Positions 27,003 through 61,306 of a stretch of 64,000 nucleotides of DNA are shown here, one piece after another (the first letter of the stretch is position 1; each line of letters starts with the position of its first letter). The notes under the pieces are model-generated. The model saw nothing but the letters and a program-made list of their open reading frames with translations, searched no databases and was not told the DNA's origin. Location of the stretch: positions 1,583,640 through 1,647,639 of the forward strand of contig OZ252106.1 of the NCBI GenBank assembly GCA_965248475.1, read 5' to 3'. The position numbers and the translations under genes are program-made. The DNA comes from Dehalococcoidia bacterium (GTDB taxonomy: Bacteria; Chloroflexota; Dehalococcoidia; Lucifugimonadales; G965248475).

Positions 27003-27650
27003 TTACCCCCCGGCCTGGATGCAGTGGGCGCGGCGGATGGCATAGAAGGAGATACCCGCGGCGAGTAGCTCGGGGATGACGAGCCAGTAGAGCATGATGG
27101 CCAATGCTACGCTCCCTGATGTCACCAGGATTGCGCCAAGCACAGGGGCCTTCCGCATGAACCAGAATCCACCCGCAATGGCAATCAGACTTAGTGGGAG
27201 TAAGGAATAAAAGACGTAGGTCCAGTCTGGCAGATATGCGAAGTCAGCCTGGCGCCGGTACTCAATCTCTGCTATGACGGTGCGAATAAGCAATGCTACC
27301 AGTAGCATCGTCGCCATGACTCCCGTAACGACGGTCATGGTCTTGTAGTCCCTTGTCTGTGTCATGGCGCCCTCCTCCGTGTCTACGTCTCGCGTACGGA
27401 TGTGGGCCAGCCGCCACATCAGGTCGTCCGGGAGACCCAGCAGCCAACGGAGCAACAGGTGCGTCGCCAGTGGAAGGCCATTCCATTGATTCGTCTCTGC
27501 TTCCTGCGCCTGCTCCCAGAGATCTGCGTCGATCTCCTCACGGCGGGAGTCGCGGAGGCCCGATGGAAGGCCCGCGGTGTACACGCGTACCCAGGCGCGC
27601 ACGAAGCTAACGGAGCGGGGCATGAGCCCGGTGGCACTATGTCTAAACAT
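27003..27650 (-). CDS. Membrane sensor-like protein, paralog B of 28402..29061
   Basis: The N-terminal ~75 aa (GLMPRSVSFVRAWVRVYTAGLPSGLRDSRREEIDADLWEQAQEAE...LLLRWLLGLPDDLMWRLAHIR) are near-identical to paralog A. Four divergent TM helices follow. Confidence 0.7.
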   Translation of the reverse strand: MFRHSATGLMPRSVSFVRAWVRVYTAGLPSGLRDSRREEIDADLWEQAQEAETNQWNGLPLATHLLLRWLLGLPDDLMWRLAHIRTRDVDTEEGAMTQTRDYKTMTVVTGVMATMLLVALLIRTVIAEIEYRRQADFAYLPDWTYVFYSLLPLSLIAIAGGFWFMRKAPVLGAILVTSGSVALAIMLYWLVIPELLAAGISFYAIRRAHCIQAGG

Positions 27651-28045: not shown

Positions 28046-28405
28046 TCAAACTTGGGCCACCTTGCGCCTCCGTTTGACGACGCCCGCTACCGCAACAGGG
28101 ATGGCGATGGCTGGCACGATGCCGGTCCACCAAAAACAGGCTGCCACAGGCAGTGCACCTGCCGCTAGTAGAGCACCACCATTGCCCGACTGTGAGCGGG
28201 CAGAGCCCCAGGCGCCTGCTGACAACGCAGCTCCACCGATAAGCAAGACAACGGCAACTCCCAGTTCCATCCCTCGTCCGCCGACATCTACGGGTATGAA
28301 ACCTGCTAGATACAGGACGCTGCCGGCGAAACTGACAAGTGCCAAGAGGGTCGCCGCACCAAGAAAGACCACCAAAGTTACTCTCGATCCGTTCATCTGC
28401 ATCAT
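28046..28405 (-). CDS. Small 4-TM membrane protein
   Basis: The ATGA start/stop overlap with the upstream gene at 28402..28405 suggests translational coupling. Hydrophobic Gly/Ala-rich TM segments and a KRRRK tail. Confidence 0.6.
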   Translation of the reverse strand: MMQMNGSRVTLVVFLGAATLLALVSFAGSVLYLAGFIPVDVGGRGMELGVAVVLLIGGAALSAGAWGSARSQSGNGGALLAAGALPVAACFWWTGIVPAIAIPVAVAGVVKRRRKVAQV

Positions 28406-29061
28406 CCTGCTTCGCCCTCATCCGCGACAAAGAAATCTGTTGCTCCAACAGTCCGACGCTTGCTCGTCTTGTAGGCCTGGAAAAGTCCCAATAGCACCAT
28501 GAACCCGCCAATGATCGGAAGGATAACCGTCCATTGCCACGCGAAGCCGAACACGACCGCGCCCATCATCAGTGTGATGACGCCAGCCTGCGGCCTGCGA
28601 GCGAGTATGAGAGCGCCCCACATCACCGCGAGCCCGTCTACCAACAAAATCGCTGCGCCCAGGACTGGATCAGCCTCATTCATAGTCGGAGGGTGTCCCA
28701 GCACAGTGCCTGCGCTGCCGACAAGGCTGAGGAGGCCTATGATCACGGCCAGGCTGCGGAAAGCCCATCCTGCCGCTCGTGTTCTCACGCCCTCCTCCGT
28801 GTGTACGTCTCTGGCACGGATGTGTGCCAGCCGCCATATGAGGTCGTCAGGGAGACCCAGCAGCCAGCGGAGCAGCAGGTGCGTCGCCAGCGGAGGGCCA
28901 TCCCTTTGCACCGTCTCCGCTTCCTGCGATTGATCCCAGAAGTCGGCGTCGATTTCCTCGCGACGGGAGTCGCGAAGGCCTGACGGAAGACCGGCGGTAT
29001 AAAGGCGTACCCAAGCGCGCACGAAACCAACAGAGCGGGGCATGAGCCCAGTGCTACTCAT
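28402..29061 (-). CDS. Membrane sensor-like protein, paralog A (PadR-associated)
   Basis: ATG 29061 aligns with the start of paralog B. The same frame stays open upstream through PadR (see findings). The N-terminal cytoplasmic helical domain + 4 TM resembles the DUF1700-type partner of PadR regulators. Confidence 0.7.
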   Translation of the reverse strand: MSSTGLMPRSVGFVRAWVRLYTAGLPSGLRDSRREEIDADFWDQSQEAETVQRDGPPLATHLLLRWLLGLPDDLIWRLAHIRARDVHTEEGVRTRAAGWAFRSLAVIIGLLSLVGSAGTVLGHPPTMNEADPVLGAAILLVDGLAVMWGALILARRPQAGVITLMMGAVVFGFAWQWTVILPIIGGFMVLLGLFQAYKTSKRRTVGATDFFVADEGEAG

Positions 29062-29202
29062 GGGATGCCTCGCTCGGGTCGCAGAGTCGGCGTGGCGCGC
29101 GCGCTCAGTGTGGTGCTTGGCGAGTGCTGTTTCGCCGGCCATTGTCACCCGATAGAAGCGACGCCGGGGCCGGCCTTCATCAGCCGCGACCTGCGGGTCC
29201 TC

Positions 29203-50082: not shown

Positions 50083-51011
50083 TCACTGAGTGAGGTTGGG
50101 GTATCTCTCACCCGTATCAGGCAACACCGTGACAACCACCTTGCCCTCACCCAGGCGCTGCGCAACCTGGAGTGCCGCCACTACGTTGGCTCCCGAAGAG
50201 ATACCAACCAGCAGGCCTATCTCGCGGCTCAACCGTAGGGTGGTGTCTATGGCTTCCTGAGTGGTGACGGTAACCACCTCGTCAACGATGTCTCGATCCA
50301 GAATGGACGGCACGAAGTCGGCACCGATACCGACTATGCCGTGGTCTCCCGCGCTGCCTCCATTGAGCAGCGGTGACGTGTCAGGCTCCACAGCTACCAC
50401 CAGCACCGAGTCGTTGGCGGCCTTCGGCGCCCGTCCCACGCCCGTCAGCGTCCCGCCTGTGCCGACACCGGCCACAAAGGCGTCAACCCGGCCTTGAGTC
50501 GCATCCAGTATCTCCCTGCCGTGCCCTCCTGGTGGGCTTTAGCATTGGCGGGATTGTTGAACTGATCCAACATCAGCAGACCATTATTGGAATCCAGCAT
50601 CCGTCTTGCCGCCAGGTTTGATCCATCCACACCCATGTCTGCAGGTGTCAGGTGGACCGTGGCCCCGAACCGGGCGACCAACCGCCGCCGCTCCAGGGGT
50701 ACGCCCTCCGGCATCACAATGGAGACCTGGTAGCCCTTGGCGGCACCCACTACAGCCAGGGCAACGCCCATGTTGCCTCCCGTCGATTCGATTAGGCCCA
50801 TGCCGGGCTTGAGCACGCCCCGTGCCTCAGCGTCCTCCACCATTGCCAGGGCCGCGCGGTCCTTCACGCTTCCACCGGGGTTCAGGTTCTCCAACTTGGC
50901 CAGGAGCTGCGCCGACCCAGGCGGTTCCAGGGCACGCAGCCGCACCAGGGGTGTGTTCCCTATGAGAGCAAGAATGCTATCGCTTAGAGCGTTGTCCAAG
51001 GTGCTCGCCAA
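50083..51011 (-). pseudogene. PLP-dependent cysteine synthase family protein (CysK/CysM-like), frameshifted
   Basis: GNTPLVRL, PGGSVKDRAA (PLP Lys). ..NPANAKAHQEGTA breaks at 50514..50516. The shifted frame gives (G)EILDATQGRVDAFVAGVGTGGTLTGVGR, joining track ORF 50083..50475. SD GGGAGG + TTG 51011. Confidence 0.8.
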
Positions 51012-51243: not shown

Positions 51244-51269
51244 GGTAGTACTATAGTATGGAGTATGGT

Positions 51270-51542
51270 ATGACTAAGACGGCCAAGATAGCGATAAGCC
51301 TTCCTAATGACCTCCTTCAGGACATCGAGAGGGAGTGTAAGGCTAGCGGGGAAACCCGGAGCGAGTTGTTCCGTCGGGCGGTGCGAGCTCACCTGCGCCG
51401 TGAGCGCCAGCGAGAGCTGGAGGAGCAGTACATACGCGGGTATACAGAGATGCCTGAGACAGAAGAGGAGGTGGGGTGGATCCACGCCGCCGGACTAGCC
51501 GCCCTTGCACAAGTACCCTGGGATGAAGGACGGGATGAATGA
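51270..51542 (+). CDS. RHH (CopG-like) antitoxin
   Basis: KIAISLPNDLLQDIERECKASGETRSELFRRAV ribbon-helix-helix. 4-nt ATGA overlap with the toxin gene. Confidence 0.85.
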   Translation: MTKTAKIAISLPNDLLQDIERECKASGETRSELFRRAVRAHLRRERQRELEEQYIRGYTEMPETEEEVGWIHAAGLAALAQVPWDEGRDE

Positions 51543-51856
51543 AGCGCGGTGAGGTCTGGTGGGCTAACATGCAGGCGCCGTGGGGACGGCGACCTGTAGT
51601 GCTGTTGTCTCGTGACTCCGCGTACGAGATCCGGGAATCGGTGACTGTGGCCCCTATCACGACAACGATACGCCGAATCTCCGTAGAGGTCCCCCTAGGG
51701 CCAGAGGACGGTATGCCCCGCTCTTGCGTTGCAAATCTTGACAACATCTCCACTGTTGGCAAGAACATCATCCAGGAACCAATCACTGTACTAAGTCTGC
51801 AGAAGCTTCAAGCCGTTGAGGCGGCGATACACTTTGCTTTGGGGATGGAGGAGTAG
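51539..51856 (+). CDS. mazF: MazF/PemK-family endoribonuclease toxin
   Basis: MKRGEVWWANM...RRPVVLLSRD...VTVAPITTT...CVANLDNISTV matches the PemK/MazF fold pattern. Confidence 0.9.
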   Translation: MKRGEVWWANMQAPWGRRPVVLLSRDSAYEIRESVTVAPITTTIRRISVEVPLGPEDGMPRSCVANLDNISTVGKNIIQEPITVLSLQKLQAVEAAIHFALGMEE

Positions 51857-51902: not shown

Positions 51903-52577
51903 CTACTGTGTGCGCACATGCTCCCGAGTCGACGAGTCGGCTGGCGAGTATATGAGGGTACCGCTCCAGAGAAGCCGGTAGTAATACTGGTGCACATCGC
52001 CACCGGTTAGCAGGGTCGCCTGGAAGGTGCATGGCCCGACAGCCAAAGCGTCGACTCCCACCGACACGGGAAATCCGCAGAGCTTCTCGGGAACATCCGA
52101 GCCAATGGCTACGTCCCTCATGATCTCAACCTGCAACTCTCCCGTGATAGGGACAGTGGCGGAGATTGTAATCACCGCCTGCACAAACGATCCCACTAAA
52201 ACGGTGATCTGCTGGCCCGAAACTCCTTCGGAAGAAAGCTGGATTGTATGGAGGATAATCTCAACGCTTGGTGTAGACGTTGTGACCGGTATCGGTATGG
52301 CCTTCGGCGTTGCAGTGGGCGTGACGGTGGGTGTGGGAGTTGGCGAGGGTGTAGGGGTTGGCGTGGGCGTGGCAGTAGCGGTGGGTATGGGAGTTGGCGA
52401 GGGTGTGGGGGTTGGCGAGGGCGTAGCAGTGGCGGTTGGAACGGGCTGGGCGGCTAACTGAGTCGCGACCACAGCGGCTACGGTGGCTGCAAAGTCCGGC
52501 TCCGGGGAGCGCGCAGGCACAGCACAAGCAGCCAAGAGGACTGCTGTTCCAATGACTAGAAAGGTCGCTGACCGCAA
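51903..52577 (-). CDS. Lipoprotein with Pro/Thr-rich linker and C-terminal beta domain
   Basis: GGGAGG-6nt-TTG 52577. Signal peptide + lipobox RSATFLVIGTAVLLAAC. Long (T/S)P linker. Confidence 0.7.
   Translation of the reverse strand: MRSATFLVIGTAVLLAACAVPARSPEPDFAATVAAVVATQLAAQPVPTATATPSPTPTPSPTPIPTATATPTPTPTPSPTPTPTVTPTATPKAIPIPVTTSTPSVEIILHTIQLSSEGVSGQQITVLVGSFVQAVITISATVPITGELQVEIMRDVAIGSDVPEKLCGFPVSVGVDALAVGPCTFQATLLTGGDVHQYYYRLLWSGTLIYSPADSSTREHVRTQ
52305..52445. repeat. Imperfect tandem repeats encoding the PT-rich linker
   Basis: GGTGTGGG(A/G)GTTGGCGAGGG units on the plus strand. They translate on the minus strand to PTATATPSPTPTPSPTPIPTATATPTPTPTPSPTPTPT. Confidence 0.8.
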
Positions 52578-52727
52578 TATGAACCTCCCTGAGTCACATT
52601 CTATCCCACCGGCACGTATCCTGCGTCCGACCTCAGGGCACCTCACCCCTTTCACCCTGGCCTAACCCAACTCCGTATGCGACAATATCAAGCCCAATCG
52701 TAGCAACAAACGCCAAAGGGAAAGAAA

Positions 52728-54782
52728 ATGGCGAACCGGCTCAGCAAAGAGACCAGCCCCTACCTCCTACAGCACGCCAACAACCCCGTTGACTGGTACC
52801 CCTGGGGCCAAGAGGCATTCGACCGGGCACGCGCCGAGGACAAGCCCGTTCTCCTGAGCGTCGGCTACGCCGCATGCCACTGGTGCCACGTCATGGAACG
52901 AGAGTCGTTCGAGAACGAGGCAACCGCCAAACTCATGAACGACAACTTTATCGCCATAAAGGTGGACCGGGAGGAGCGCCCGGACGTGGACTCCATCTAC
53001 ATGCAGGCGGTACAGACCCAGACAGGGCGCGGCGGCTGGCCCATGACCGTATTCATGACACCGGAAGGCAGGCCATTCTTCTGCGGCACCTACTTCCCGC
53101 CCCAGGACATGCACAACATGCCCGGCTTCCCCAGTGTGCTGGAGGCCATCGCAAAGATCTATCGCGAACAGCGCGACGAGACGATAGTTTCTGCGGACCA
53201 GCTCACCGAAGAGCTGCGTGGCAGCGCGATCACGTCGCCGGAAACCGAGCCGATAACGCTGCAGGTACTGGTGCGCGCCTACCAGAGCCTGGCTCCAGAG
53301 TACGACAGCGAGCACGGCGGCTTCGGCACCGCACCCAAATTCCCACAGCCGATGGTGTTGGAGTTCCTACTGCGGTACCACGCCCGCGCCGCCGACGCCC
53401 AGGCTCTGGCTATGACCGAATTCACACTGGACAAGATGGCACGCGGCGGCATGTACGACCAGCTCGGCGGGGGGTTCCATCGCTACTCCACCGACCCATT
53501 CTGGCTTGTCCCACACTTCGAAAAGATGCTATACGACAACGCACTGCTCAGCCGTGTCTACCTTCACGCCTACCAGGCAACCGGCAACCCAGAGCATAGT
53601 CGCATCGTCGAAGAGACGCTGGACTACGTGCTCCGCGAGATGACCAGCCCGGAAGGCGGCTTCTACTCCACACAGGACGCGGACAGCGAGGGCGAGGAGG
53701 GCAAATTCTTCCTCTGGACGCCCCAGGAGATTGAGGAGGTGGTAGGCGAACGCGAAGCCGCCCCTTTCAACCTCTACTACGACGTCACGGCCGAGGGCAA
53801 CTTTGAGGGACGCACCATACTCCGCATCATCGAAGACCGAGACGATGTGGCAGAGAGCCTGGACGTCACAGGGACTGAGCTGGCAGAGATCGTCAAGGAG
53901 ACAGCCCAGAATCTGCTCGCCCACCGTCAGACCCGGGTGGCGCCAGCCAGGGACGAAAAGGTGCTCACGGCCTGGAACGGCATGATGCTCCGCACCTTTG
54001 CCGAGTCTGCCGCCACGCTGCACCGCGCCGACTACCTGGATGCGGCGGTGCGAAACGCCTCCTTCCTTCTGGACACCATGCGACCCGCTAATGGCCGTCT
54101 TCTGCGGACATACAAGGACGGCGAGGCGAAGCTGAATGCATACCTGGAGGACTACGCCCATCTTGCCGACGGCCTGCTGGCCCTGCACGAGGCCACCCTG
54201 GACATACGCTGGCTCCAGGAGGCCACTACGCTGGCCGACGCTATGCTGGAGCTGTTCTGGGACGAGGACGAGCAGGGTTTCTACGATACTGGACTCGACC
54301 ACGAGGAGCTGATCCTGCGGCCCAGGGACCTGTGGGACAACGCAACGCCCAGTGGCAGCTCCGTTGCCACGGATGTATTGCTAAGGCTGTCCATACTGAC
54401 AGGCAACCAGGAGTACAACCGCCGCGCCGCCGCAGTACTTCGCTCCATGAAGGTTGTCCTGCCCCGTGCGCCCGCGGGCTTCAGCCACTGGCTCTGCGCC
54501 CTGGACTTCCACCTGTCCACGCCCAGTGAGATCGCCATTGTCGGGCCGAGAGACGACGACGCCACCCAGGCGCTGCTGGACGAGGTGTACAGCCGCTACC
54601 TGCCAAACAAAGTCCTCACTGGCTTCGATCCCGCCCAGCCAGACGGCGCATACGAGCTGCCCCTGCTGGAAGACAAGTACATGGTGAATGACATGCCTAC
54701 CGCCTTCGTGTGCCAGAACTACGCCTGCCAGCTACCCGCCACGGAGCCACAGGCGCTGGCGGAGCAGCTTACCGAGGGGTAG
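52728..54782 (+). CDS. Thioredoxin-domain protein YyaL (DUF255 + (alpha/alpha)6 barrel)
   Basis: [18 protein letters not shown]...[14 protein letters not shown]-terminal DUF255 signature. 684 aa. Confidence 0.92.
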
Positions 54783-55034
54783 CGACCACAGTACTCTTTC
54801 ATCGCCCATCGCCTGTGATTGCGTTTGGGAGCTATCTCCGGGCGCAAGCCTATGTTGGCACACGTACCATTGCCGACTTAATATCCGTCGTAGGGGTATG
54901 ATTCAAATGTCGTTTATGATCAGCCAATGGCAAGCACCTGGCGATGTTGGAGGCCGCATGACTGGCGAAGCGTCCAGGCTCCAACCACGTAGACTGCCAC
55001 TAAGGCCAAGCAGCTCGGGGCTTGAAATAGCACT

Positions 55035-55352
55035 ATGAGCGGAATAACTGCGGGCTGGATACTGCTGGCCATTGGCGGGTCCATCGGTCTTCTAAACTTC
55101 CATCTCTCATTCACCCGATATCTCTACCACCGTCTTCGGCGACGTCGAGAGGAATACCATTTCATATCCAGGTTTCCGTTAATCGGCTCACTTCTTTGCC
55201 TGCTCTCGATCCCGTTTTTCCCCACACCATCCGTTCCACAGCTCATTGCAATAATCGCTGCGCTCGTCGATACCGCCGGGATACACTGGCTATTTGGTGC
55301 ATTTTTGTGGGATCTGTGGGACCGGCTACGTGGGACCGATTCAACCAACTAA
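55035..55352 (+). CDS. Small membrane protein encoded within the insertion after yyaL
   Basis: 105 aa, 3 hydrophobic helices. Lies between the two copies of the yyaL 3' end. Confidence 0.5.
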   Translation: MSGITAGWILLAIGGSIGLLNFHLSFTRYLYHRLRRRREEYHFISRFPLIGSLLCLLSIPFFPTPSVPQLIAIIAALVDTAGIHWLFGAFLWDLWDRLRGTDSTN

Positions 55353-55375
55353 TAGGCAACGCTGCTGGAGGACAG

Positions 55376-55480
55376 GTACATGGTGGATGACAGGCCCGCC
55401 GCCTTCGTGTGCCAGAACTACGCCTGCCAGATGCCCGCCACGGAGCCACAGGCGCTGGCGGAACACTTACCGAGGGGTAA
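55376..55480 (+). pseudogene. Displaced duplicate of the yyaL 3' end
   Basis: About 90% identical to 54677..54782. Encodes [29 protein letters not shown], then a 1-nt deletion shifts the last codons. Confidence 0.85.
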
Positions 55481-55548
55481 CAGCTATGGATGCCGGAATT
55501 ATACTCAATTGGATACTGAATAGGCCGGACTCCCGCGCCTGAGCCAGC

Positions 55549-56787
55549 CTATCGCGCCGGGCCAGCCCTAAGATGAGCGGCCCACCGGGTCAGCCAGTAG
55601 GCAGCTAGCCCCGCGCCTGCGCCGACGGCCATGTTGCCGAACGGCATGAGCACCACCAAACCCACCAGGCCCACCACCGCCAGATGTGGCAGGGAGCTCA
55701 CCTTCAGCCCTAACAGCAGGTGCTGCGCGCCCACGTATATGAGCAGCGCGCCGAGCACGGCGTAGGGCATCAGGCTGCGTACATCCAGGGCAGACAGGCC
55801 GAATAGAAGGGCAACCAGTATGAGCACCAAGCCGATCACGGTGGTCGCAACGGGTGTTCTGGCGCCTGTACGGTAGTGCGCGGTCAAGCCGCCGGAGCCG
55901 TGGCACATGGGCAGACCACCTACCAGACCGGCCCACAGGTTACCTGCGGCGATGCTGAGGCTGGTACGGACGGGTGTAACACGTGCAGAATCCGGCCCAA
56001 AGTATGTACGGGCGGTGTCCACAGTGGCGACAACGGAGTTGGTAAGTGTGAGCGGTAGCTGTGGGATAACCAGCATCACCAGGGCGGTTTCAAAGTCGGC
56101 CAGAGGCGGCCAGGCCAAAGACATGGGCACCGGGCCAAAGGTGAGGTGCGCCTCGCCATCACCGAGCAGCAGGCCGACCAGCACACCCCCCACAGCCACA
56201 ACAGCCGCGCCGGGAAGCCAGGGCCGCCACAGGAATAGCAGCAGGAGCACCAGGCTGCCGATGCCCACCAACAGGCCCACCGACACATCCAGCCCGCCTA
56301 TGTCCAGGTACCGCTGACCCTCACCGCCGATAAGGAAGGGTTTAGACAGGACCATTTTCACGGCGCTGCGTATCAGCACAAGCCCCAGGGCGAATTGGAC
56401 GCCCCGCACCACAGGCAGAGATATGACGCGTGTCAGGTACTCCACACCCCGAGTGGCGGCCAGCAGGAACATGGCCAGGCTCATCAGAAGTGCACCGGCT
56501 GCGATAACCGAAGGAGTCACCGCCTGGGCAATCGCGATGGCCGAGAATGCCTTGAGGGGCTGCACGGGCATGGGCAGACGGAAGTACCAACCGGCGGCGA
56601 TGTAGGCTATGCCCACTCCCAGAAGCGTGGATGTGGGGTTGATGCCGTTCACCGCGATGAGCGCAGCCTCCAGAGGTATGAGCACCCCCAGGTCGGCGAA
56701 GGCACCGCTGACCTCGCTACGGGTCAACGCATAGGGGCCAATGCGCACACGAACGGTTCCATGCATACTAGGATTGTCGCATGGCAC
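55549..56787 (-). CDS. Inorganic anion transporter (sulfate/molybdate transporter-like)
   Basis: About 12 TM. EVSGAFADLGVLIPL near the N-terminus resembles the MOT1/SulP-related family. The start may be ATG 56766. Confidence 0.65.
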   Translation of the reverse strand: MPCDNPSMHGTVRVRIGPYALTRSEVSGAFADLGVLIPLEAALIAVNGINPTSTLLGVGIAYIAAGWYFRLPMPVQPLKAFSAIAIAQAVTPSVIAAGALLMSLAMFLLAATRGVEYLTRVISLPVVRGVQFALGLVLIRSAVKMVLSKPFLIGGEGQRYLDIGGLDVSVGLLVGIGSLVLLLLFLWRPWLPGAAVVAVGGVLVGLLLGDGEAHLTFGPVPMSLAWPPLADFETALVMLVIPQLPLTLTNSVVATVDTARTYFGPDSARVTPVRTSLSIAAGNLWAGLVGGLPMCHGSGGLTAHYRTGARTPVATTVIGLVLILVALLFGLSALDVRSLMPYAVLGALLIYVGAQHLLLGLKVSSLPHLAVVGLVGLVVLMPFGNMAVGAGAGLAAYWLTRWAAHLRAGPAR

Positions 56788-57139: not shown

Positions 57140-57390
57140 TTGCTTCCCACCCACCCACCCTCGGCAGGGCGTGCCCTGCACCCAAGATTCTCTACCGCTG
57201 GTGAGGACTTGCCCCTAAGCCACAACGGGAAGTCCTGGTCTGGGCGATGCCCAGGGGAGGACACCTCCTCCGACTTTGTCCCGACACATCGGGATGAGCG
57301 AAGTGCCGACTCGGTCGAGCACTCGCGATGGAATCGGAGCCTCATCGGACCTTTTAGACCCCTGGTCCCGACCAGTCGGGACACCCTCCT
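57140..57390. repeat. Intergenic palindromic repeat element, copy C (largest)
   Basis: Contains TCCCACCCACCCAC, GGCAGGGCGTGCCCTGCACCCA, CCTAAGCCACAAC, TCCCGAcacaTCGGGA and GTCCCGACcaGTCGGGACACCC. These modules are shared, and partly inverted, relative to copies A and B. Confidence 0.8.
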
Positions 57391-57458
57391 GTAGTTGGGA
57401 CAATTTTGTCAAAAGCCGAGGATATCTAGTCTCAGTGCCAAGCCGGCTCAGCAGCCAC

Positions 57459-61271: not shown

Positions 61272-61306
61272 GATGCGCCGCTATCGTGAATTAGGTACGT
61301 TTAAGC

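Follow-up and report, generated by a model that had tools for sequence, protein, structure and literature searches.

The window analysed here (the whole stretch of DNA, 64 kb) contains a strain-specific insert of 0.76 kb between two converging conserved genes, yyaL and mot1 (Table 1). The YyaL protein is 100% identical to its cluster representative (P0013), and the gene has a dN/dS of about 0.1 against its relatives. The MOT1-type protein shares 88-90% amino acid identity with its counterparts in three related loci (L081-L083).

Table 1. Features at the yyaL-mot1 junction, in window coordinates.
Feature	Position	Strand	Remarks
yyaL, DUF255 / thioredoxin-domain protein, 684 aa, intact	52728..54782	+	PF03190, E = 3.6e-78
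Repeat copy A: last 39 codons of yyaL and TAG stop, functional gene end	54663..54785	+	
Non-coding leader of the insert, 249 nt, G+C ~0.55	54786..55034	+	sigma-70-like site at 54855-54884
Small membrane-protein gene, 105 aa, three hydrophobic helices	55035..55352	+	uncharacterised stand-alone family
Repeat copy A': displaced yyaL 3' end, pseudogene fragment, TAA stop retained	55362..55482	+	
Spacer between A' and the MOT1-gene stop codon, window-specific	55483..55548	.	homology with relatives back only at 55543
MFS_MOT1-type (molybdate/sulfate permease-like) transporter gene, right conserved flank	55549..56787	-	PF16983, E = 1.8e-42

The 3' end of yyaL is present twice. A repeat search returned a direct repeat of 54663-54766 and 55362-55465 with 91% identity, and a MAFFT alignment lengthens it past the stop codon to the limits given in Table 1, with 109 of 121 positions matching, identical runs of 32 and 29 nt, and a single 1-nt deletion in the second copy. 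In a self-BLAST of the whole window, where two other repeats were found, the match has E = 1.9e-41 and is thus well above chance. The repeat is confirmed, and it is slightly longer than in the preliminary description, which paired 54677..54782 with 55376..55480 at about 90% identity and with a 1-nt deletion. Its right edge is the yyaL stop codon, TAG in the first copy (A) and TAA in the second (A'), while the left edge of A' lies 10 nt past the stop codon of the small ORF. The DNA between the copies, 574 bp, holds a promoter-like leader and the 105-aa ORF; that this DNA differs in composition, as had been proposed, is borne out by a G+C of 0.52-0.555 against 0.60-0.67 in the flanks, and the ORF with its three hydrophobic helices is present as described.

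The upstream copy had been taken for a replacement end, and A does complete a working yyaL, the downstream copy being a frameshifted relic. Five lineage-specific changes are seen in A: three are synonymous, one is the TAA to TAG change in the stop codon, and the last is non-synonymous and puts a Met at position 11 of the 39 tail residues, which 0 of 108 homologues have. A stays under purifying selection. At the five sites changed in A, A' holds the relatives' common state; its own changes are K5R, T13A and L24M, plus the frameshift caused by the deletion, which is located after codon 34. Each of the three leads to a residue that 9 or more of the 108 working homologues have, whereas a random non-synonymous change would arrive at a residue with 6 or more occurrences among them in only 15.7% of cases (p ~0.004, post hoc). 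Being tolerated by working homologues, these replacements fit evolution inside another lineage's working yyaL before displacement. The A' branch carries roughly 3 non-synonymous and 1-2 synonymous changes, all of these counts being very small.

Distances among the two copies and the L081 allele are star-like (A-A' 109/121, A-L081 112/121, A'-L081 111/121). A and A' thus have 12 differences, about what separates yyaL alleles of different lineages, and either copy differs from the L081 allele at 9-10 positions. With the copies as divergent from each other as from L081, this is not a fresh integration scar.

The leader and the small membrane-protein gene

The leader contains a promoter-like site, TTGGCA-18-TAATAT, identified by consensus match only. 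By BLASTN, TBLASTX and Smith-Waterman comparison it has no similarity to any of the 116 fetched loci (L001-L116) or to the rest of the window, and it matches no Rfam family. The same three methods, applied to the same 116 loci and the window, found no similarity between the spacer downstream of A' and the relatives' intergenic DNA.

Twelve homologues of the small protein, at 64-82% identity, share the invariant motifs LNFHLSF, HRLRRR and DTxGxHW, and a profile search returned 439 cluster representatives at E<=1e-3 (clusters counted at 50% identity), the homologues being stand-alone proteins of about 100 aa. Together with a dN/dS of 0.30-0.50, this number of homologue clusters indicates that the ORF is a genuine gene. 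The protein has no match in Pfam, NCBIfam, PHROG or PADLOC, none of the approximately 439 clusters matches Pfam, and no relative was found among phage, plasmid or viral collections. Its AlphaFold model is all-helical with a pLDDT of 70.6, and a PDB fold search with this model gave no match better than E = 3. The family is widespread and wholly uncharacterised. For annotation purposes, the ORF should be called as a gene and A' entered as a yyaL pseudogene fragment.

A search for other copies of the insert found no second copy in the window; other genomes do have loci related to it, but these share the ORF alone, with conservation running from its ATG to its stop codon only. The homologues elsewhere have no common flanking ends and no flanking repeats, and when neighbouring genes were clustered over 29 loci no widely conserved partner emerged, the best being common to 4 loci. 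Close homologues of the gene lie in transposase-dense variable regions. A small cytochrome c gene is a neighbour of the small gene in other genomes.

The yyaL-mot1 site in related lineages

Homology with the relatives ends 5 nt beyond the stop codon of yyaL, at 54787, and restarts at 55543, 6 nt before the mot1 stop codon. The insertion beside yyaL is lineage-specific, as first suggested, since lineages whose yyaL is 86-90% identical at the DNA level have neither the insert nor the duplicate. Instead they carry 2.4-3.3 kb of unrelated genes between yyaL and mot1, namely ECH-DAO-68aa with or without Peptidase_M55, and one further lineage has cytochrome c together with M55-ECH-DAO. Depending on the lineage, then, the site holds the small gene or a small cytochrome c. 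The empty site that a comparison with relatives was meant to reveal was found in one locus, L092 (72% amino acid identity), where yyaL and mot1 are directly convergent and overlap by 4 nt, but not in a close relative.

None of the compared relatives carrying other cargo or an empty site has the yyaL-end duplicate, nor does it occur within 6 kb in any of 71 other yyaL loci (0/71). In JGI metagenome contigs, a two-block scan for the yyaL end and mot1 spaced by about 200 nt found neither an empty-type nor a window-type site, and a scan of genome contigs returned only relatives at <=60% identity with no conserved synteny. The protein collection contains a single contig of the window's lineage.

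The yyaL end differs between L081 and L082 at 12 positions in 121 nt, as against 95.6% identity over the whole gene. Such divergence is unusual but would be expected beside a recombination hot spot. Sliding identity along yyaL and mot1 gave no clear import tract or breakpoint. On the question of whether the window lineage previously had the M55-ECH-DAO genes, the yyaL tree is divided, with 50% versus 45% bootstrap.

Origin of the insert

The reading we favour, with a probability of about one half, is homology-driven additive recombination between diverged yyaL alleles, by a single crossover or a one-sided illegitimate join. The yyaL-mot1 interval would be a recombination hot spot whose content differs among lineages of this uncultured bacterium, in all probability a Dehalococcoidia-like one within the Chloroflexota. 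Through an additive event, one chromosome would have come to hold the last 39 codons of yyaL in two allelic versions. A and A' would then have come to flank the segment with the leader and the orphan small membrane-protein gene, A completing yyaL and A' being displaced and later gaining its frameshift. Sequence homology, rather than a dedicated integrase, would have been the driver. A direct duplication of the homologous anchor, 0.1-1 kb long and flanking heterologous DNA, as looked for in single-crossover and homology-facilitated illegitimate recombination (HFIR) products, is present here at 121 nt.

Two routes can be envisaged. In the first, a single (Campbell-type) crossover would have taken place between the yyaL end of the chromosome and a small circle of DNA derived from a related lineage whose small gene was located directly downstream of yyaL. 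In the second, homologous exchange would have been one-sided, with its anchor in a flanking gene, and an illegitimate join would have closed the far end; the M55-ECH-DAO block known from sister lineages might, for example, have given way to a fragment of an "empty" yyaL-mot1 allele, of which A' and the spacer remain. Both routes fit, given the divided bootstrap support for the history of that block. We infer the route, and which copy came in, from the present arrangement. Recombination between A and A' is predicted to pop the insert out as a 699-bp circle.

Some observations count against recombination between alleles. No donor allele and no intermediate allele was found among the loci compared, the flanks lack a clear import tract, and the ratio of changes in A' would also fit neutral decay after duplication in place. 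On balance we take the insert for an ordinary recombination scar at a variable spot of the genome, and there is no sign of a new mobile element.

The mechanism first proposed was site-specific integration, with the two copies as attL and attR. This is not supported: there is no recombinase at the locus or in the window ORFs scanned or read, no tRNA near the insert, no set of conserved ends, no duplicate in the 71 other yyaL loci, and no repeat around the cargo of sister lineages; moreover, a single crossover or a one-sided illegitimate join would give the same anatomy without a recombinase. The accompanying statement that no integrase is present holds up: the locus itself, the 27 window ORFs scanned against Pfam and the remaining window ORF translations listed revealed no integrase, transposase or reverse transcriptase. 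The decayed islet that was proposed along with this mechanism, and that we consider unlikely, would be a tyrosine or serine recombinase element that entered the yyaL 3' end, supplied A, and later lost its integrase and most of its cargo. Of such an element, attL and attR would persist around the rest of the cargo, much as in a cis-mobilisable element that has no integrase. Several features would suit such a decayed islet: the direct repeat includes the 3' end of the target gene and stops exactly at its stop codon, the upstream copy is intact and the downstream one displaced, the insert has a lower G+C, L092 has an unoccupied site, and close homologues of the small gene lie in transposase-dense variable regions. 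There is also precedent in the Dehalococcoides islands at ssrA, which leave 20-bp repeats of the ssrA 3' end (PMC3146451). Against this, the ORFs of the 64-kb window that were scanned or read include no recombinase in or beside the insert, and the 105-aa ORF is the insert's only gene. There is likewise no recurrent att site among the 71 yyaL loci and no conserved end elsewhere, the insert being single-copy in the window and its homologues conserved over the ORF only, without flanking repeats, and sister lineages carry other cargo at the same spot with no repeat. Only 574 bp of the element would be left, and a literature search found no pairing of yyaL with "integration site".

Other classes of mobile DNA were considered and rejected. 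The insert has no terminal inverted repeats, its sole inverted repeat being internal (54918-54936 with 55063-55081), and with no transposase among the ORFs scanned and a duplication of 121 nt it does not fit an IS element, a MITE or a transposon. Nor does it fit an integron gene cassette, as no integrase was found among those ORFs and there is no attC-like hairpin, the single-stranded DNA fold of 55340-55550 being not unusually stable (z = +0.47 versus shuffles).

Tandem or slipped duplication of the yyaL end in place, for example during break repair at the insertion of the small gene, with A' decaying neutrally afterwards, seems improbable to us. It would account for the one derived base that A and A' share (GAT/AAT, with T in place of the C of L081 and L082), for the frameshift and the roughly 3 non-synonymous to 1-2 synonymous changes of A', which are compatible with neutrality, and for the lack of a donor. 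However, A' is no nearer to A than to the L081 allele, and a copy evolving neutrally since the split should show about 24 changes (per-lineage dS about 0.2), compared with the roughly 6 seen. All three replacements in A' being residues used by working homologues also speaks against neutral decay, and a simple tandem copy would double the intervening DNA, which is single-copy.

There is a very small chance that the 0.7-kb unit, made up of the yyaL-end copy, the leader and the small gene, moves between related genomes as a minimal cassette without an integrase. If it were, the unit would supply a replacement end for a conserved gene while being mobilised in trans or by host recombination, and would offer single orphan membrane-protein genes a route into the 3' ends of core genes.

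Very improbable, too, is an assembly artefact, in which a chimeric or mis-joined metagenome assembly put a second strain's yyaL end downstream. The source is apparently a metagenome-assembled contig of 2.4 Mb, a frameshift that could be an assembly indel interrupts a PALP (cysteine-synthase-like) gene close by, and the two-block scan of JGI metagenome contigs found no independent contig with the same arrangement. Yet the 574 bp between the copies is unique and contains an intact conserved ORF, there is no common overlap able to mis-join the insert to A', and the copies differ by 10 substitutions, unlike error noise. Finally, a diversity-generating retroelement, with the yyaL end as variable repeat and a template repeat downstream, would resemble this locus in its repeat of about 120 nt at about 90% identity with one copy at a gene 3' end, but is refuted by mismatches spread over all bases (only 5/10 at adenines in A and 3/10 in A'). 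The A' states, which match the relatives' ordinary alleles, and the lack of a reverse transcriptase in the insert or among the window ORFs scanned or read also speak against it.

Comparison with known systems

We regard the locus as a record of how an uncultured lineage of Chloroflexota gains small flexible genes, or exchanges them, at a junction of its core genome. Current ideas on mobile elements are unchanged by it; what sets it apart is the retained gene-end relic, which preserves a recombination event of a kind rarely visible.

In the E. coli lacZ system, circular molecules that contained a fragment of a gene end integrated by single crossover and duplicated 109-950 bp of that gene end, such Campbell-type integrants being a by-product in homology-facilitated illegitimate recombination experiments (PMC3240628). 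In S. pneumoniae, transformation reportedly gives rise to merodiploids (PMC3784515). Like the Campbell-type integrants, the present locus has its inserted DNA flanked by direct repeats of a short, homologous stretch of gene end, whose 121 bp fall within the size range of those experiments; it too requires no dedicated recombinase, and its repeat could recombine the insert out. It is unlike them in that the event occurred in nature, is apparently old and involved alleles about 9% apart, and in that the stop codon marks the exact end of the repeat, as the DNA past the stop is lineage-specific.

Dehalococcoides ssrA islands have the DsiB serine recombinase and a direct repeat of the gene 3' end (PMC3146451). 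As in these islands and in integrative mobilisable elements, strain-specific cargo of lower G+C lies here between direct copies of the 3' end of a conserved gene, and the gene remains intact. Unlike them, the locus has no integration module, and where they have a short conserved core its repeat extends over 121 nt with 91% identity; the yyaL site is not reused in the 71 other loci, and the cargo is a single gene of 318 bp.

Our locus also makes a case for population genomics, where flexible genomic islets between core genes are exchanged by homologous recombination in their flanks. As in such islets, one core-gene pair brackets an empty state, a small membrane protein, cytochrome c, or M55-ECH-DAO. 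Flexible islets are usually without a duplicated flank, whereas here the relic of one flank records the event.

The duplicated end of yyaL

A repeat search of the window paired 54663-54766 with 55362-55465 at 91%, and self-BLAST of the 64 kb gave this match E = 1.9e-41, with two other repeats only. Aligned in full, the functional yyaL 3' end (copy A) and the displaced second copy (A') match at 109/121 positions and reach the stop codon, with one 1-nt deletion in A'. The repeat reported in the preliminary description is therefore real and slightly longer than noted there, and the compositional contrast of the intervening DNA also holds (G+C 0.52-0.555 between the copies, 0.60-0.67 outside). A duplicated yyaL 3' end within 6 kb was found at 0 of 71 other yyaL loci.

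Features of the locus and of loci in other genomes (L-numbers); plain positions refer to the window
Feature	Position or locus	Remark
yyaL, DUF255/YyaL, 684 aa	52728-54782	PF03190, E = 3.6e-78
Copy A	54663-54785	last 39 codons of yyaL and TAG stop
Small ORF, 105 aa	55035-55352	
Copy A'	55362-55482	starts 10 nt past the 105-aa ORF stop; resembles A as far as its own TAA
mot1, MFS_MOT1-type transporter gene	55549-56787	strand opposite to yyaL
Cargo ECH-DAO-68aa	L082, L083, L091	replaces window segment
Cargo Peptidase_M55-ECH-DAO-68aa	L081, L090	replaces window segment
Cargo M55-ECH-DAO-85aa	L118	replaces window segment
Cargo 140-aa cytochrome c gene, then M55-ECH-DAO	L117	replaces window segment
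Cytochrome c gene, for comparison	L087:5321-5770 (-)	
Cytochrome c gene, for comparison	L088:477-1025 (-)	

Elsewhere in the window, a second direct repeat (27368-27633 and 28788-29053, 266 nt, 85%) sits in the 5' parts of minus-strand genes 27003-27650 and 28402-29148, neither with a Pfam match, which are probably tandem paralogues. Two overlapping ORFs at 50083-50475 and 50445-51011 (-), each corresponding to one half of PF00291, make up a broken PALP (cysteine-synthase-like) gene: either a pseudogene with a frameshift or an indel error of the assembly.

The interval between yyaL and mot1 in relatives

In species-representative genomes the best matches are Dehalococcoidia MAGs with only 60% identity, and synteny with the window is not conserved there. 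The 90% cluster in a large protein collection, where the window's own lineage is a single contig, contains ten YyaL sequences, and contigs were compared for seven members. Homology with the relatives ends at 54787, 5 nt past the yyaL stop, and restarts at 55543, 6 nt before the mot1 stop, so that 54788-55542 is specific to the window. The cargo-bearing relatives compared (L081-L083, L090, L091, L117 and L118) hold other genes in its place, and none has a second yyaL end. In L092, a 72% identical relative, yyaL and mot1 are directly convergent with a 4-nt overlap; the empty site that had been suggested for comparison thus exists. This arrangement, with cargo that differs by relative, indicates that the interval is a lineage-variable hot spot with an "empty" form. 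A metagenome scan for a yyaL-end block about 200 nt from a mot1 block gave no match. In the yyaL tree, window-first and L117-first branching are nearly tied (bootstrap 50% against 45%).

The last 121 nt of yyaL in the sister lineages L081 (2199-2319) and L082 (2376-2496) differ at 12 positions, the whole genes being 95.6% identical. This high divergence suggests allele exchange beside the variable segment and is as expected beside a recombination hot spot.

In L117 a 140-aa lipoprotein-type cytochrome c gene (1931-2353, +) lies directly 3' of yyaL, ahead of Peptidase_M55. Its product is 37% identical, over the full length, to the cytochrome c adjoining homologues of the small ORF in L086-L088; two hot-spot cargo genes of different lineages are thus neighbours in other genomes.

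Relatives show homology only from about 52561 onwards, which makes the upstream flank of yyaL lineage-specific too. Just upstream, 51258-51856 (+) and 51903-52655 (-) hold an RHH antitoxin and PemK/MazF toxin pair and a 250-aa Thr/Pro-rich protein, in which a 12/18-nt periodic repeat (52294-52431, seven overlapping 54-nt copies) encodes a TPTPSP-type low-complexity linker. On the other side, the intergenic DNA at 57163-57450, between a glutaredoxin-like ORF and a GFO/IDH/MocA gene, exceeds its counterpart in relatives by about 180 nt. It may represent a further small insertion or indel, and an 18-nt inverted repeat lies inside it (57277-57294 paired to 57366-57383).

The small membrane-protein gene

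Sequence conservation marks the 105-aa ORF as a genuine gene, with 12 homologues at 64-82% identity sharing invariant motifs and a dN/dS of 0.30-0.50. With a cut-off of E<=1e-3, a profile search reached 439 cluster representatives, most of them stand-alone proteins about 100 aa long, and 24 further distant copies occur in soil, wetland and marine metagenomes. The three membrane segments described earlier are present as three hydrophobic helices on sequence inspection, and His, Asp and Cys residues are conserved. The protein matched nothing in Pfam, NCBIfam, PHROG or PADLOC, nor in a fold search against the PDB, and no relatives were found in phages, plasmids or viral contigs. Its closest homologues are sited in transposase-dense regions of other genomes, where DNA conservation runs from ATG to stop; around them we found neither flanking direct repeats nor a widely common neighbour gene. 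The 249-nt leader and the post-A' spacer have no similarity match and no Rfam family, and a sigma-70-like site is matched at 54855-54884. Within the small ORF, at 55312-55329, a 9-nt tandem duplication (TGTGGGATC / TGTGGGACC), present in no homologue, gives LWD-LWD.

Origin of the displaced copy

We polarised the A/A' differences against L081 and L082. Five changes are specific to A: three are synonymous, one turns TAA into TAG, and one is a replacement by a Met that 0 of 108 homologues have. Those of A' are K5R, T13A, L24M and the frameshift, and a single derived base is common to both. Distances are star-like (A-A' 12, A-L081 9, A'-L081 10 differences). With dS between window and L081 at about 0.40, some 24 changes would be expected in a sequence neutral since their split, against about 6 seen in A'. 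The three A' replacement residues all recur among functional homologues, each in 9 or more of the 108; of the non-synonymous changes that are possible, just 15.7% would give a residue present in 6 or more, hence p ~0.004 (post hoc, n = 3). The few changes and the tolerated residues suggest that A' mostly evolved as part of a functional yyaL in a different lineage and that its displacement is fairly recent. The non-synonymous to synonymous ratio of A' fits neutral decay as well, however, and the counts are too small to decide.

The observed anatomy, A and A' around an inserted segment (X), is the product of any additive recombination inside a gene end. We put the probability of a homology-driven event at about one half, for two routes jointly. 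A single crossover could have brought a small circle of DNA (A+X) into the chromosome, the donor being a lineage with X just past yyaL. Alternatively, a one-sided homologous exchange could have been completed by an illegitimate join at the other end, for example if a mot1-anchored fragment of an empty allele replaced an M55-ECH-DAO block that the window's ancestor may have carried, leaving A' and the spacer. L117 offers a precedent for a small gene between yyaL and M55.

The preliminary description had proposed attL/attR integration; an insertion leaving a duplicated gene end stands, and the integrase mechanism is not supported. Hallmarks of a mobile element were not found. None of the window ORFs examined, those of the locus included, encodes an integrase (as already noted), a transposase or a reverse transcriptase. 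There is no tRNA nearby (the sole window tRNA is at 61305), no terminal inverted repeat and no attC-like hairpin (fold z = +0.47). Further copies of the insert are absent from the 64-kb window, and a literature search gave no paper linking yyaL with "integration site". The mismatches, which are not confined to adenines of either copy, exclude a diversity-generating retroelement. Site-specific integration with later loss of the recombinase, leaving a decayed integrase-borne islet, also fits the anatomy but is unlikely. Duplication of the yyaL end in place, then decay, is less probable again. An assembly artefact is very improbable.

By any route, A and A' are still recombination substrates, and their recombination would delete the insert. 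In Dehalococcoides, integrase-borne islands have a conserved integration module, and the ssrA repeats left behind are 20 bp long (PMC3146451); the window locus has nothing comparable. In E. coli experiments, single-crossover events of the first kind gave gene-end duplications of 109-950 bp without a dedicated recombinase (PMC3240628). Genome scars of this kind are known; the present one lies at a flexible islet that carries an uncharacterised yet widespread small membrane-protein gene.
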